64,000 bases of DNA from Escherichia coli (GTDB lineage: Bacteria > Pseudomonadota > Gammaproteobacteria > Enterobacterales > Enterobacteriaceae). Below, piece by piece: positions 2,681 through 29,403 of this stretch. The stretch lies in assembly GCF_048403405.1 (NCBI RefSeq), contig NZ_CP183129.1. The stretch is one strand, 5' to 3'. Below the pieces are notes generated by a model that searched no databases, had not been told where the DNA came from, and saw only the letters and a program-made list of their open reading frames with translations. The position numbers and the translations under genes were made by a program. Numbering within the stretch: the first letter of the stretch is position 1; each line of letters starts with the position of its first letter.

Positions 2681-5600
2681 ATGACAGTAAAAATTTCTGG
2701 CGTGCTTAAAGATGGCACAGGAAAACCAGTACAGAACTGCACCATTGTGCTGAAGGCCAGACGAACCAGCAGCACGGTGGTGGTGAACACGGTGGCCTCT
2801 GAAAATCCGGATGAAGCCGGACGTTACAGCATGGATGTTGAGCATGGCCAGTACAGCGTCACCCTGCTGGTTGAAGGTTTTCCGCCTTCACATGCCGGGA
2901 CCATTACCGTCTATGAAGGTTCCAGACCAGGTACGCTGAATGATTTTCTCGGTGCCATGACGGAGGATGATGTCCGACCGGAGGCACTGCGCCGCTTTGA
3001 GCAGATGGTGGAAGAGGTGTCACGTAACGCCTCCGCGGTTGCACAGAATACGGCAGCCGCGAAAAAATCAGCCAGCGATGCCAGTGCATCAGCCAGCGAG
3101 GCGGCAACTCATGCAACCGATGCTGCAGCCTCAGCACGTGCCGCCAGCACGTCAGCCGGACAGGCCGCGTCGTCGGCTCAGTCAGCGTCTTCCAGCGCAG
3201 GAACGGCATCGACAAAGGCCCGTGAAGCAGCAAAAAGTGCTGCTGCTGCAGAGTCATCAAAAAGCGCGGCAGCTACCAGCGCCAGTGCCGCGAAAACGTC
3301 AGAAACGAATGCCGCAGCATCACAAAAATCGGCAGCCACTTCTGCATCCACAGCGACCATGAAGGCGTCAGAAGCTGCCACCTCGGCACGGGGTGCGGCG
3401 GCCTCAAAAGAGGCAGCGAAATCTTCAGAAACGAATGCATCATCAAGTGCCAGTAGTGCAGCTTCCTCGGCAACGGCGGCAGGAAATTCCGCGAAGGCGG
3501 CAAAAACGTCCGAGACGAACGCTAAGTCTTCTGAAACAGCAGCGGGACAGAGCGCCTCAGCTGCGGCAGGTTCAAAAACAGCGGCTGCATTATCTGCCAG
3601 TGCCGCGTCAACAAGTGCCGGGCAGGCCTCAGCCAGTGCCACCGCCGCCGGAAAATCGGCAGAAAGCGCCGCATCATCCGCTTCAACAGCCACAACGAAG
3701 GCTGGCAAAGCCACTGAGCAAGCCACTGCAGCAGCGAGGTCTGCTTCTGCAGCAAAAACCTCTGAAACAAATGCAAAGACTTCAGCAGACAATGCTGCTT
3801 CCTCTAAGGCGGCAGCCGCATCGTCAGCCAGTTCAGCGGCGTCATCGGCATCATCTGCGTCTGCTTCAAAAGATGAGGCGACCAGACAAGCGTCAGCAGC
3901 GAAAGGTAGTGCCACGACAGCAACAACGAAAGCATCAGAGGCGGCAGGCAGTGCGACGGCTGCATCTCAGAGCAAAGTTGCTGCTGAATCCGCGGCAACG
4001 CGCGCCGAGACAGCAGCAAAACGGGCAGAGGATATTGCATCCGCCGTGGCGCTGGAGGATGCGAGCACGACGAAAAAGGGGATAGTACAGCTCAGCAGTG
4101 CAACAAACAGCACCAGTGAAAAGCTGGCGGCAACGCCAAAGGCAGTTAAAACTGTTAAAGATAGTTCAGTTCAAAAAACTGGCGACACAATGGGAGGGCA
4201 GTTAAAAATCAGCACGATAAATGCTCTTCGAATATTCAACCAAGCCTTTGGCCTTATTTTTAGGCGTTCCGAAGATCATCTTCATCTTATTCCGACTAAT
4301 GAAGGGGAGGGGGAAAATGGAGACATCGGTTCATTAAGACCATTCTCTATAAACTTAAGATCAGGGTTGGTGTCCATCGGTAATGGACTAAAAGTTGGTG
4401 GTAGTGTTACTGGTAATTTGACCGGAAACGCAGATACTGCGACCAAGATCAAGACAGCACGTAAGATTGGGGGCGTGGCATTTGATGGATCGGCAGATAT
4501 CAACTTGCCTGGAGTCAACGCTACCGGTAATCAAAACACTACAGGTAATGCTGCGACCGCCACGAAACTTCAGGCAGCCAGAACGATTAACGGTGTGTCA
4601 TTTGATGGTAGTGCAAATATCACATTGACCCCTTCAAATATTGGGGCATTGGCATTAACTGGAGGGACTCTTTCAGGTGGTTTAACTGCTGCTGGTGAGG
4701 TTATTTCAAGGTCAGCAAATGGTCTGCGTATTGCCTATGGCAACTATGGATTCTTTATCCGAAATGATGGATCAAACACATATTTTATGTTGACAGATTC
4801 GGGTAACAGTCTTGGTACGCACAATAGCTTAAGGCCGTTTATAATTAGTAACCATACTGGCAATGTTACAATTGCAACTAAATTAAACGCGAGTGGTGGT
4901 ATCACTGGATCTTTATCGGGTAATGCAAGCACAGCAACCAAATTGCAAACTGCAAGGACAATTAACGGCGTAAAATTTGACGGCTCGGCAAATATTGAAG
5001 CGTTTCCGCCAGGTGTTCCGCTGCCGTGGCCATCAGATACACCACCTGCAGGTTATGCGATCATGCAGGGGCAGACGTTTGATAAGGCAGCATATCCGAA
5101 ACTGGCTATTGCCTATCCTTCAGGTGTTATTCCAGATATGCGCGGCTGGACAATCAAGGGCAAACCCGCCAGTGGCCGGGCCGTATTGTCTCAGGAACAG
5201 GACGGCATAAAATCGCACACCCACAGCGCCAGCGCATCCAGTACGGATTTGGGGACGAAAACCACATCGTCGTTTGATTACGGCACTAAATCCACGAATA
5301 ACACCGGGGCGCATACGCACAGTCTGAGTGGCTCTACGGGGTCTGCCGGTGTTCATACTCATGGTAATGGTATTCGTTGGCCAGGAGGCGGCGGTTCTGC
5401 GTTAGCATTTTATGATGGCGGTGGGTTCACTTATGTCCAGAATTCACAGTATCAAGTAAGCCCGGAGACTTCTTCCTATAGATCGTATTATCAACGTATT
5501 CAGACACAGTCAGCAGGTGCTCATACCCACTCGCTGTCTGGTACTGCAGCAAGTTCTGGCGCACATGCACATACTGTAGGTATTGGTGCGCATACGCACT

Positions 5601-5707
5601 CCGTTGCGATTGGTTCACATGGACACACCATCACCGTTAACGCTGCGGGTAACGCGGAAAACACCGTCAAAAACATCGCATTTAACTATATTGTGAGGCT
5701 TGCATAA
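2681..5707 (+). CDS. stf: Side tail fibre protein
   Basis: 1008 aa; N-terminus [22 protein letters not shown] and C-terminus ..[11 protein letters not shown] match lambda Stf as recalled; stop overlaps tfa start (TAATG). Confidence 0.9.
3040..4060. repeat. GC-rich Ala/Ser-rich repetitive coding region inside stf with recurring AAKTSETNA units
   Basis: Near-identical DNA blocks (..aaaacgtcagaaacgaatgc..) recur at ~3293, 3418, 3498, 3751. Confidence 0.7.
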
Positions 5708-6291
5708 TGGCATTCAGAATGAGTGAACAAGCACGGACCATAAAAATTTATAATCTGCTGGCCGGAACTAATGAATTTATTGGTGAAGGTGACGCATATA
5801 TTCCGCCTCATACAGGTCTGCCAGCAAACAGTACCGATATTGCACCACCAGATATTCCTGCTGGCTTTGTGGCTGTTTTCAACAGTGATGAGGCATCGTG
5901 GCATCTCGTTGAAGACCATCGGGGGAAAACGGTTTATGACGTAGCGTCAGGGGACGAGTTATTTATTTCTGAACTCGGTCCGTTACCGGAAAATGTTACC
6001 TGGTTATCGCCGGAAGGGGAGTTTCAGAAGTGGAACGGCACAGCCTGGGTGAAGGATACGGAAGCAGAAAAACTGTTCCGGATCCGGGAGGCGGAAGAAA
6101 CAAAAAACAACCTGATGCAGGTAGCCAGTGAGCATATTGCGCCGCTTCAGGATGCTGCAGATCTGGAAATTGCAACGGAGGAAGAAACCTCATTGCTGGA
6201 AGCCTGGAAAAAGTATCGGGTGTTGCTGAACCGTGTTGATACATCAACTGCACCTGATATTGAGTGGCCTACGAACCCTGTCAGGGAGTAA
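5707..6291 (+). CDS. tfa: Tail fibre assembly protein
   Basis: 194 aa; [38 protein letters not shown] matches lambda Tfa as recalled. Confidence 0.9.
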
Positions 6292-6342
6292 TCATTGGGA
6301 TTATGCCGCAGCACGTCTTAAGCAAGAACGTGCTGCGGTTGG
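6131..6342 (+). repeat. Direct repeat copy 1: tfa 3' end plus downstream 11-bp-stem palindrome
   Basis: About 210 bp repeated at 7182..7391; last ~95 bp nearly identical by eye. Confidence 0.85.
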
Positions 6343-6345
6343 ATG

Positions 6346-7014
6346 CTATTTTTTCCCTGAAGCGGAAAACATTACTACAGTACCTTGAACCTTGGTTTTA
6401 ACATTCTCGAAATGCTCTGAGAGTATATGTGTTAAGCCTTCTTCGGAATCTTTTGTGTTTGAAAAGATGCCTTTCTGATTGTAAATGCGCATCAGTTTTT
6501 GACCGAAGCTATTGTGCACAACTCCATCGCCAAGAATTGTGGCTCCGTATAGAGTTCCATCGTCAGTTAAGGCCTGCGCCGCATTGCGTATTACACAGCT
6601 TTTTGTAGATATATTTCCAGGCAGGCAGTGAAGAAGGTAAAACATGGAAATGGAATCAAATTGACCATGTAACGCCGCGGGATAAGGTTCAAAAACATCA
6701 TGGCTAATTTTATGTTTAATTTTTGATTCCCCAGCCCTTGTAGATGCCGCGTTCAGGCTAGCTTCGTTCAAATCCATTAAAGATATCAGACTACTCTCAG
6801 GTACGTGAGTAAGGTAAAACCCAGTTCCAACACCAATATCCAGATGGTTGTTACCTACATGTTCCAGAAAGTGTGGAAGAAGGTGTTCCTTTGTAGGACA
6901 TCCCCATGCAAGCCGATTTGATACTCCCAAAACCCACCAGTCATAAAGCTTTAGGGTAAGTGGTGTGTAAATTTTAGCCCCATCATCTGTGTTTTTTTTC
7001 ATTGATTTCACCAT
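6346..7014 (-). CDS. Class I SAM-dependent methyltransferase, substrate unknown (prophage cargo gene)
   Basis: Rossmann motif I LDIGVGTG and downstream acidic residue (LMDLNE); AT-rich by eye; a second ATG 4 codons in (MKKNT, end 7002) has the better SD (GGTGA). Confidence 0.7.
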   Translation of the reverse strand: MVKSMKKNTDDGAKIYTPLTLKLYDWWVLGVSNRLAWGCPTKEHLLPHFLEHVGNNHLDIGVGTGFYLTHVPESSLISLMDLNEASLNAASTRAGESKIKHKISHDVFEPYPAALHGQFDSISMFYLLHCLPGNISTKSCVIRNAAQALTDDGTLYGATILGDGVVHNSFGQKLMRIYNQKGIFSNTKDSEEGLTHILSEHFENVKTKVQGTVVMFSASGKK

Positions 7015-7070
7015 GTTATAGTTTTATTTGTGAATTAAATCAATTATGGCGATGAATTACAAGGGGTTAA

Positions 7071-7340
7071 ATGCTGCCGCAGCATAGCGATATTGAAATA
7101 GCCTGGTATGCTTCGATACAGCAGGAGCCGAATGGCTGGAAGACCGTCACCACACAGTTCTACATCCAGGAATTCAGTGAGTATATTGCGCCACTGCAGG
7201 ATGCTGTAGATCTGGAAATCGCAACGGAGGAAGAAAGATCGTTGCTGGAGGCATGGAATAAATATCGGGTATTGTTGAATCGTGTTGATACATCAACTGC
7301 ACCTGATATTGAGTGGCCTGCAAATCCTGTCAGGGAGTAA
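7071..7340 (+). pseudogene. tfa remnant: C-terminal ~55 codons of a tail fibre assembly gene fused to an unrelated N-terminus
   Basis: C-terminal translation ..[51 protein letters not shown] parallels the Tfa C-terminus. Confidence 0.55.
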
Positions 7341-7391
7341 TCATTGGGATTATGCCGCAGCACGTCTTAAGCAAGAACGTGCTGCGGTTGG
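7182..7391 (+). repeat. Direct repeat copy 2 (see 6131..6342)
   Basis: Same sequence block including the palindrome CCGCAGCACGT-N11-ACGTGCTGCGG. Confidence 0.85.
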
Positions 7392-7455
7392 CTGGTGAAC
7401 TTTCGATAGTGCGAGTATTGAATGATTTCCAGCCGTTACCGATTTTACGTGTTAA

Positions 7456-7704
7456 TTAGTGAACAAACCACTCGTCAGCAGACTCCCAGGTATCTTTCAG
7501 AGTTTCCTGAACAAAAGTTTTAGCTGAATCTTTATCGGCGGTGCGCGTAACAGAAAGGCCATCGTTGCTGGTAGCTTTTACGATCACCTCTACATCGTCA
7601 TAACGTTTACTGATGCGTCGGGTTAATTCTTCCTTTAACGCATCCACAGCACCGGTTGGCATTTTAGTCATTTTTTCTTTGGCTATGCAGATTTCAATAC
7701 GCAT
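7456..7704 (-). CDS. DinI-like protein (SOS-inducible, prophage-encoded)
   Basis: 82 aa; MRIE..IAK...GA(V/I)DAL..EL.RRI and C-terminal [13 protein letters not shown] match the DinI family. Confidence 0.85.
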
Positions 7705-7719
7705 AAAAGTCCCTCTACA

Positions 7720-7735
7720 CTGTGTTTGTATACAG
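7720..7735 (-). promoter_or_regulatory. LexA box (SOS operator) ahead of the dinI-like gene
   Basis: CTGT-N8-ACAG (cactgtgtttgtatacagta) 16 bp upstream of the start codon. Confidence 0.75.
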
Positions 7736-7747
7736 TATCATTTTTAA

Positions 7748-7763
7748 CTGTATGGATAAACAG
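7748..7763 (-). promoter_or_regulatory. Second LexA box in tandem
   Basis: CTGT-atggataa-ACAG. Confidence 0.65.
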
Positions 7764-7790
7764 TGTCAAGGGTGAAGGAAAGTGATTTTT

Positions 7791-7849
7791 TGGGGCATGC
7801 ATGGGGCAAAAATATTTGTTGTGGGGCATTTTGGGGCATGATTGGGACA
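7791..7849. repeat. Array of four perfect and one degenerate TGGGGCA direct repeats near the prophage-host junction
   Basis: TGGGGCA at 7791, 7802, 7822, 7832; TTGGGACA at 7842. Confidence 0.8.
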
Positions 7850-7951
7850 CTTTGTTACATATGAACTTTGCCGATTTTTATATGACATGGAAATACAACG
7901 CTTTGATTCTTCTAAATAAAAAACATGCTCTTGGGCGTTCTTTAGTGATTT

Positions 7952-8062
7952 TTAAAAATTCCGTATCACGCAGTTAAAGTGGCGGGCATACTCTTCAAGG
8001 CTGGTGATCCCCAACCGCACCCATTTAGGATGCGACCATTGCGGCAGACCGATGTAAATCAT
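7952..8062 (-). pseudogene. yecE: Truncated yecE (first ~32 codons retained, then disrupted by the prophage)
   Basis: Minus-strand translation [32 protein letters not shown] then diverges and stops; ATG overlaps yecD stop (ATGA). Confidence 0.6.
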
Positions 8063-8640
8063 AATGCGTTGAGGATCTCTTCCACACTGCGCACACGGGC
8101 GATGCGTGGGTAGATATGGTTGATGCTGTTATTGTGCTGCTCGGCGCTGGCGGCGCTGCAGGCGTCTTCGGCAATCACCAGATTAAAACCGAGTTCCCAG
8201 GCATTGCGGGCGGTGGATTCAACACCGATATTGGTCGAGATCCCACATAATACTATTGTATCGATACCCCGGCGGCGTAATTGCAACTCCAGATCCGTAC
8301 CGTAAAACGCACCCCATTGATGTTTGATGATTTCGATATCGCTGTCGGTTGCACCTAATGCAGCAGGATGTTGCCACCAGTTTTCGGGTAACACTTTAGC
8401 AGGGGAGGGGACATCAACCGGCTGTTTTAATGCTTCGGCATAATCGGCAGACCAGCCAACGCGCACCAGAAACACGGGCTGACCGCTCGCGCGAAATTTC
8501 GCCGCCAGCTTCCCGGCGCGATTAACCACCTCATCGGCAGTATGTGGACCTCCGGCAAAAGGTAAGATGCCTTCTTGTAAATCAATCACCACCAGCGCAG
8601 TGGTTTTAGCATTAAGTTCAAGCATGATGACTCCTGACAA
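8059..8640 (-). CDS. yecD: Isochorismatase-family hydrolase YecD
   Basis: 193-aa ORF (K-12 form starts at MLELNAK, 8625); position next to aspS. Confidence 0.85.
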
Positions 8641-29387: not shown

Positions 29388-29403
29388 CTGTATAAAATCA
29401 CAG
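29388..29403 (+). promoter_or_regulatory. LexA box of yebG
   Basis: CTGT-ataaaatc-ACAG ~20 bp upstream of yebG. Confidence 0.75.

Follow-up and report, generated by a model that had tools for sequence, protein, structure and literature searches.

Intact ybcY, a methyltransferase gene, as probable lysogenic-conversion cargo of a lambdoid prophage in Escherichia coli

Lambdoid phages are known to carry extra genes, so-called morons, such as lom, bor, sodC and the ompT/appY genes of prophage DLP12. In E. coli K-12, DLP12 also holds the pseudogene ybcY, annotated as frameshifted, for which no functional study was found in the searchable literature; one paper reported a K-12 ybcY mutant to be without effect on Hha toxicity, one described the synteny of ybcY with ompT, and in the literature on DLP12/tfaX, STM1638 and the PhiR phages nothing on ybcY function was found. 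On the enzyme side, the methyltransferases VerB/DovB, CtvB and AurB O-methylate the α-pyrone hydroxyl of fungal polyenes (PMC12312803). Here, a stretch of 64,000 nucleotides from an E. coli chromosome (RefSeq assembly GCF_048403405.1, contig NZ_CP183129.1), referred to as the window, was analysed, in which positions 2681–7800 form the right end of a lambdoid prophage adjoining yecD, aspS and nudB. The gene under study, located at 6346–7014 on the minus strand, encodes a class I S-adenosylmethionine (SAM)-dependent methyltransferase (MTase) and had been described, in an original prediction made from the letters alone, as orphan prophage cargo that might be co-transcribed with an SOS gene.

By sequence comparison, the MTase gene is an intact ortholog of ybcY. 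Its product matched PHROG 2132, a family of unknown function, with E=4.2e-157, residues 5–222 covering positions 1–218 of the 218-position profile. The K-12 copy is 99% identical in nucleotides and is situated in DLP12 between a fragment of the tail fibre assembly gene tfa (tfaD′) and tfaX, followed by appY and ompT. Both copies thus lie between a tfa fragment and tfaX and share the upstream spacer; the K-12 copy differs in that the start codon M5 is lost, a run of A residues carries a frameshift, and appY instead of dinI is the next gene upstream. Copies annotated in RefSeq match the window sequence at 100% identity, and the identical protein in the closest genome is labelled class I SAM-dependent methyltransferase (WP_000240999.1). 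The gene is therefore already known and annotated rather than a new kind of system, and is still uncharacterised.

The gene was detected in 3831 of 5426 complete E. coli genomes (~70%), with 1–4 copies each at 95–100% identity, and in 15 phage records, including those of the lambdoid phages ev243, 2G7b, Kati, Turner and the PhiR series, one of which labels its copy YbcY. In DLP12-type cargo regions, and likewise in phages ev243, Kati and PhiR26_1, ompT and appY accompany it, and further copies are found on a Salmonella plasmid contig and in islands flanked by insertion sequences (IS). On the Salmonella contig (L013, 2616–5657) the MTase, 87% identical, is accompanied by ccdAB, a KfrA-like gene, an integrase and a Peptidase_S66 gene (LD-carboxypeptidase/MccF-like); the MTase gene therefore also spreads on plasmids.

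We consider it probable, although by no means certain, that this ybcY ortholog is a self-contained lysogenic-conversion cargo gene, or moron, of lambdoid phages, encoding a small-molecule methyltransferase under its own promoter. A cassette of 1049 bp, consisting of promoter-bearing spacer, coding sequence and hairpin and bracketed by 231-bp repeats of the tfa 3′ end, would be moved or deleted among prophages by homologous recombination between tail fibre assembly genes. A σ70 promoter in the conserved AT-rich spacer would transcribe the gene and H-NS would repress it, the SOS-controlled dinI promoter upstream being an unlikely driver. The product, a soluble protein of ~24 kDa with the class I SAM-MTase fold, would as a best guess O-methylate an acidic enol, phenol or carboxyl, with a lipid head group as the alternative. 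As a more far-reaching and rather doubtful extension, YbcY may be a phage-spread detoxifying or signal-editing enzyme that O-methylates a diffusible enolic, phenolic or carboxylic molecule of the gut, for instance a microbial toxin of the pyrone, quinolone or tetramate type or a host or dietary metabolite, to the gain of the lysogen's fitness. If true, such a benefit would explain why ~70% of E. coli genomes retain the gene intact, even where all else of the prophage has gone.

The cassette comprises the following features:
6346–7014, minus strand: coding sequence of the ybcY-type class I SAM-dependent MTase (open reading frame (ORF) list, PHROG 2132, Pfam Methyltransf_12).
7015–7070, minus strand: AT-rich spacer of 56 bp with 27% GC and two candidate σ70 promoters (promoter scan; match to a K-12 site from genomic SELEX, systematic evolution of ligands by exponential enrichment).
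7043–7038 and 7020–7015, minus strand: candidate promoter TTGATT–17 nt–TATAAC, equal to the K-12 SELEX ybcY promoter.
7070–7065 and 7048–7043, minus strand: candidate promoter TTAACC–16 nt–CATAAT (promoter scan).
7012–7008, minus strand: Shine–Dalgarno-like GGTGA ahead of M5.
6992–6999, minus strand: A8 homopolymer straight after the M5 codon (alignment of 11 copies).
6115–6345, plus strand: direct repeat copy 1, tfa 3′ end with hairpin, forming the left cassette boundary (repeat search).
7164–7394, plus strand: direct repeat copy 2, tfa 3′ remnant with hairpin, forming the right cassette boundary (repeat search).
6306–6338, no strand assigned: hairpin copy 1, 7 nt past the MTase stop and 15 nt past the tfa stop (−23 kcal/mol, z = −4.9).
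7355–7387, no strand assigned: hairpin copy 2, between dinI and the MTase gene (14-bp stem, −23 kcal/mol, z = −4.3, without a U tract on the minus strand).

The two copies of the repeat family D1 bracketing the MTase gene measure 231 nt, are 90% identical to each other and are spaced by 1049 bp. An empty site was found in a related prophage of strain EC11, in which the order is stf–tfa–dinI, without the MTase gene; it aligns continuously to 5507–6269 and then to 7164–7614 of the window, so that the 1049-bp unit appears as an insertion relative to a collinear relative. Hairpin copy 1 lies between the convergent tfa and MTase genes and, like copy 2, lacks a minus-strand U tract. Together with promoter-like hexamers, the SELEX RpoD site, this predicted hairpin terminator and a deviant composition (GC 41% versus 50%), the unit has the makings of a moron, and it resembles lom, bor, sodC and the ompT/appY genes as an extra gene of low GC on the opposite strand with a promoter-like region and a hairpin; it differs from them in encoding a cytoplasmic enzyme rather than a surface protein. 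The AT-richness reported in the original prediction was borne out by 41.1% GC in the gene (35.9% at third codon positions) as against 50.2% in the window and 53.9% in aspS. Taken with the empty site, the repeats further indicate that the tfaX ORF is a recombination scar and that the adjacency of MTase gene and dinI results from the placement of the cassette.

Genomic SELEX with the RpoD holoenzyme in K-12 placed the ybcY promoter TTGATT–17–TATAAC in this spacer and flagged H-NS there (PMC3946193). The spacer was near-invariant in 11 copies despite differing upstream neighbours, which across ten further copies from E. coli and phages were appY, ompT, IS66, an α/β hydrolase gene, IS5, ompW remnants or potB. 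Most likely, this candidate promoter drives the MTase gene in the present strain as well, with H-NS holding it down. A search of 5500–8300 against Rfam gave only IS009 and a sub-threshold match to CssrB, with no riboswitch or known small RNA (sRNA) in the spacer.

The remaining genes of the prophage end, among which dinI is relevant to transcription, are as follows:
2681–5707, plus strand: side tail fibre gene stf, first in the gene order of the prophage end.
5707–6291, plus strand: tail fibre assembly gene tfa, complete and convergent with the MTase gene (PHROG 105, E=9e-101; RefSeq annotation).
7071–7340, plus strand: tfaX-like ORF of 89 aa, a tail fibre assembly remnant equal to K-12 tfaX/ylcE (PHROG 2341, E=4e-61).
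7456–7704, minus strand: dinI-like gene of 82 aa, the final prophage gene ahead of yecD (NCBIfam DinI, PHROG 189).
7720–7769, minus strand: dinI promoter TTGACA (7769–7764)–18 nt–AAAAAT (7745–7740), with 10/12 matches in the promoter scan.

With stf and tfa on the plus strand, the MTase gene indeed runs opposite to the tail genes, and no nuclease or specificity gene was found beside it, its neighbours being stf, tfa, the tfa fragment, the dinI-like gene, yecD and aspS. In the tfaX-like ORF, the C-terminal 59 aa match the tail fibre assembly family PHROG 105, and RefSeq labels it a partial tfa pseudogene. The dinI-like product matched PHROG 189 with E=6e-31 and NCBIfam DinI with E=2e-20 at 73 bits, which is under the curated cut-off of 111. 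Two matches to the LexA box CTGT-N8-ACAG, at 7748–7763 and 7720–7735, overlap the near-consensus dinI promoter, in line with the predicted LexA control of this gene; in the whole window, three perfect boxes were counted as compared to 0.7 expected, and none was present in the interval 7015–7455, including the MTase spacer.

This arrangement invites the alternative that the MTase gene is SOS-coupled cargo, in which, after LexA cleavage, the dinI transcript would read through the hairpin and the antisense of the tfa remnant, so that the MTase would be made mainly at prophage induction or DNA damage. Both genes are on one strand, the two LexA boxes cover a near-consensus promoter, and the interval separating the genes is free of intrinsic terminators with a U tract. 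Against this stands that the order MTase–tfa′–dinI is limited, at ≥80% coverage, to 37 genomes, compared to 3831 that carry the gene, that at least six other upstream neighbours occur while the spacer is conserved with the gene, and that in the EC11 empty site dinI directly follows tfa, making the adjacency a by-product of placement. Moreover, the gap between dinI and the MTase gene extends over 441 nt that are untranslated on the minus strand, C-rich (117 C, 79 G) and contain the −23 kcal/mol hairpin, features that would favour Rho-dependent termination. The same hairpin follows the MTase gene; were it to terminate transcription there, termination of the dinI message would be expected as well. 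The MTase gene also brings its own conserved promoter region. The original prediction was right that a palindrome without U tract separates the two genes, but not that it alone does so, the gap holding 441 nt with the tfa-remnant antisense and the promoter-bearing spacer in addition. As a general property of the gene, SOS co-transcription was not upheld and is, as an account of its expression, unlikely; in this particular strain read-through from dinI is, as judged from the sequence, physically possible but neither needed nor conserved.

In two genomes, RefSeq additionally places a frameshifted pseudogene of 80 bp, labelled 'DinI family', in the gap from the MTase gene to the tfa remnant (L019, 3244–3323; L020, 3437–3516; equivalent to ~7089–7168 of the window, minus strand). 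It was not accepted as established, as tblastn with DinI yielded only a marginal antisense match (E=0.002, 471-nt target).

The MTase protein has ~24 kDa and a pI of 6.9 and contains no signal peptide, extra domain or added nucleic-acid-binding domain. The glycine-rich loop LDIGVGTG (motif I) occupies residues 58–65, with G61, G63 and G65 conserved to ≥90% in 91 homologs, and D81, which ends the predicted strand E76–81 at the position of the SAM-ribose acidic residue (end of β2), is invariant in the same alignment; the canonical Rossmann SAM motif with its downstream acidic residue had thus been recognised correctly. In Pfam, only generic MTase domains matched, namely Methyltransf_12 (6e-9), _23, _25 and _11. 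The AlphaFold2 model, computed from the 91 homologs, reached a predicted local distance difference test score of 93.8 and displays the seven-stranded α/β fold of solved MTases, with a three-helix N-terminal lid over the Rossmann core. Foldseek searches against the Protein Data Bank (PDB) returned, as top matches, juvenile hormone acid MTase (JHAMT), phosphatidylethanolamine N-MTase, phosphoethanolamine MTase and the C-MeT domains of polyketide synthases (PKS), and the structural neighbours of the model are overwhelmingly small-molecule and lipid MTases. In AFDB50, relatives at 35–47% identity and a TM-score of ~0.9 were stand-alone proteins of ~220 aa from proteobacteria and fungi, with natural-product labels such as 'Methyltransferase verB' (37%), vrtF-like protein (40%) and VatX (37%); the verB model, linked by its UniProt label, aligned over 225 columns with a TM-score of 0.88 and E=4e-24.

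Several more specific candidates were rejected. The NCBIfam families CpaM, RquA and PmtA scored 16–18 bits versus cut-offs of 175–390, and PDB sequence matches to JHAMT and UbiG (E ~1e-3) were generic, pointing to no specific family. AurI, EncK and JerF may possibly be homologous to the MTase. Outside the SAM site, residues Y16, Y24, D25, W37, C39, H57, H129, C130, K138, N179, N186 and D189 were invariant or near-invariant; they presumably line the substrate pocket and do not identify the substrate. Because only generic Pfam domains matched, the Foldseek and AFDB50 neighbours are of this kind, the pI is 6.9 and no nucleic-acid-binding domain is present, the MTase most likely methylates a low-molecular-weight substrate, whereas DNA, RNA or protein is unlikely. 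As had been stated, the substrate could not be assigned from sequence, and the profile and structure searches led to generic MTase families only and to none of the housekeeping families whose substrates are known.

Like the MTase, the fungal enzymes VerB/DovB, CtvB, AurB and AstB are single-domain proteins of ~220–235 aa; they differ in that their genes are located in PKS clusters, while the MTase gene stands alone in a prophage and E. coli has no such polyene pyrone. Rv0560c (Htm) of Mycobacterium tuberculosis, a stand-alone MTase for heterocyclic toxins (PDB 7bgg), shares 15% identity and is not of the same family, so that the likeness is one of concept and not functional evidence.

Since lipid MTases are among the structural neighbours, the protein could instead N-methylate a phospholipid head group in the manner of PmtA and the phosphoethanolamine MTases and thereby alter the membrane of the lysogen. 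This is improbable, as identity to those structures is 15–20%, with scores no better than those of dozens of unrelated small-molecule MTases, the NCBIfam match amounts to 15.7 bits versus a cut-off of 390, and the closest sequence relatives are labelled from natural-product pathways.

Somewhat less probable again is a macromolecule MTase acting on DNA, RNA or protein in phage–host conflict, which would protect phage DNA, block a defence system or modify a host protein. A regular-expression search of the protein gave neither a (D/N/S)PP(Y/F/W/H) motif nor a PC-type DNA-MTase motif IV, in agreement with the earlier statement that it is not a (D/N)PPY-type DNA MTase, and as a single domain of ~220 aa with neutral pI it has no target-recognition or RNA-binding domain. 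The best PADLOC match (mad2; E=0.009, 12.9 bits) was not significant. Homologs at 50–68% identity are ordinary chromosomal genes of ~30 genera without phage context, and the gene survives in remnants that are unable to make phage.

The family comprises ~800 clusters at 50% identity (E<1e-10) from bacteria and fungi. For its genomic context, one genome per species was used, giving 569 confirmed loci, and neighbourhoods were taken from the best 80 of these, which cover ~30 genera including Enterobacterales, Pasteurellaceae, Pseudomonas, Dyella, Agrobacterium and Paraburkholderia. No conserved partner gene was found, as even the commonest neighbour family reached at most 13 of the 80 loci; recurrent neighbours (MCP, SDR, a LysR regulator, CorA, ECH) reflected synteny inside Pseudomonas subgroups, and Tfa neighbours were confined to the Escherichia locus. 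Same-strand ORFs lay within 60 nt upstream in 15 of 67 loci and within 60 nt downstream in 7 of 67. With no recurrent partner and few close same-strand ORFs, the gene is therefore an orphan across the whole family, which extends the earlier view of an orphan MTase as prophage cargo. A lambdoid phage lineage of Escherichia has captured a chromosomal γ-proteobacterial gene as cargo.

Two apparent partners were dismissed. In the P. cichorii group (L030, 3925–6681) the homolog follows genes for DUF892, Mn catalase and DUF6388 after a 30-nt gap, and in O157:H7 TW14359 (L008, 790–4169) yciG-, yciF- and yciE-like genes and a Mn catalase gene follow the MTase gene on the same strand; among the 80 loci, Mn catalase with DUF892 is confined to the P. 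cichorii lineage, and the O157 adjacency arose because the prophage integrated at ompW beside yciEFG. An α/β hydrolase as methylesterase partner was likewise set aside, as it is a generic Abhydrolase_1/TAP-like protein that is absent from the window and most contexts. This hydrolase, of 494 aa, recurs together with ompT beside the cassette in ev243, PhiR26_1 and O157 (L010, 1971–3455; L024, 1614–3098; L008, 7165 onward) and represents a further piece of uncharacterised cargo in this prophage region.

The MTase ORF has 222 aa, counted from the ATG at 7014 to the stop codon TAG at 6348–6346. Since the M1 codon is ACG in strains CFT073 and E06, whereas M5 (ATG at 7002–7000) is conserved, the Shine–Dalgarno-like GGTGA precedes M5, and the PHROG 2132 profile and most homologs begin at residue 5, translation probably starts at M5 (7002) and not at M1 (7014), giving 218 aa. 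The K-12 copy has ATA in place of this ATG and a shortened A run, and the A8 tract at 6992–6999 might be especially prone to slippage and so act as an off switch for the gene. Versus the 87%-identical Salmonella plasmid copy, the ratio of nonsynonymous to synonymous substitution rates (dN/dS) was 0.17, with 46 synonymous and 34 nonsynonymous differences, and versus Enterobacter and Klebsiella copies it was ~0.1, with dS near saturation in these comparisons. On the strength of these ratios, the ORF is a real, selected gene and not a chance ORF.

Of ten further copies inspected, from E. coli and phages, nine had the gene intact; it was preserved even in prophage remnants stripped of almost all phage genes, such as those at argU in CFT073 and E06 and beside potB elsewhere. 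The argU remnant (CFT073, L009, 3072–5354; E06) consists of int′, tfa′, ybcY and ompT, and the potB-side remnant has IS629 and a group II intron nearby. In the protein database, the full-length cluster has 6589 member sequences, and truncated variants form clusters of 194 aa, 161 aa (445 members) and 130 aa. Retention in degraded prophages and the low dN/dS suggest that the gene benefits the host or lysogen. That it is a decaying passenger without present function, carried along with the tfa repeats and heading for loss as in K-12, is most improbable, because the K-12 pseudogene, the truncated protein clusters and the mutation-prone A8 tract after the start are outweighed by dN/dS values of 0.1–0.17, the size of the full-length cluster and the intact copies in very degraded prophages.

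A number of points weigh against the interpretation of ybcY as a self-contained small-molecule MTase cassette. The −10 element of the SELEX promoter (TATAAC) is weak and abuts the annotated ATG, so that the predicted mRNA would be near-leaderless, and in this strain dinI transcription possibly enters the MTase gene. The connection to VerB was made through the UniProt label of an AFDB model, and the nearest solved structures are only ~21% identical to the MTase. Unlike the situation for VerB, CtvB and AurB, no PKS-sized family was seen among the clustered neighbours of the 80 loci, in which PKS domains were not searched explicitly.

Further observations were made in and around the prophage end. 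Residues ~120–460 of the stf product form an Ala/Ser/Thr-rich low-complexity centre, and long spurious ORFs overlap stf on both strands. The Rfam family IS009 (RF02111, a candidate sRNA) matched the 3′ part of the tfa coding sequence at 6050–6248 (plus strand) with 225 bits and the tfa remnant at 7094–7297 (plus strand) with 112.5 bits, slightly below the gathering score of 117; the family thus appears to represent coding DNA of tail fibre assembly genes and what is left of them, not a free-standing RNA gene. The Shigella sRNA CssrB gave sub-threshold matches of 33 bits (gathering score 76) on both post-tfa hairpins, at 6275–6337 and 7322–7386 (plus strand). Just past the dinI promoter, the 21-nt direct repeat TTTTGGGGCATGCATGGGGCA and its 86%-identical copy were located at 7788–7808 and 7829–7849, spaced by 41 nt; lying near the prophage–host junction, the repeat may be linked to the attachment site. 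The third CTGT-N8-ACAG match of the window, at 29388–29403 (plus strand), is found ~20 nt upstream of an ORF starting MAVEVKYVVIREGEEKMSF, which we take to resemble the SOS gene yebG. A second strongly AT-rich patch is present at 13000–13600, with a GC fraction of 0.36–0.37 amid host DNA of 52–54% GC.

The SOS link that was proposed stems from where the cassette happens to sit in this strain, and the MTase gene itself is a known gene, real but ordinary. It is at the same time a very common prophage cargo of E. coli that purifying selection maintains and that outlasts the decay of its prophages, which makes it a candidate for lysogenic conversion, and the lack of functional studies on ybcY is likely due to the K-12 copy being a pseudogene. 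Its substrate, once found, would add a lysogenic-conversion function to lambdoid phages and would annotate a family of ~800 clusters in bacteria and fungi.

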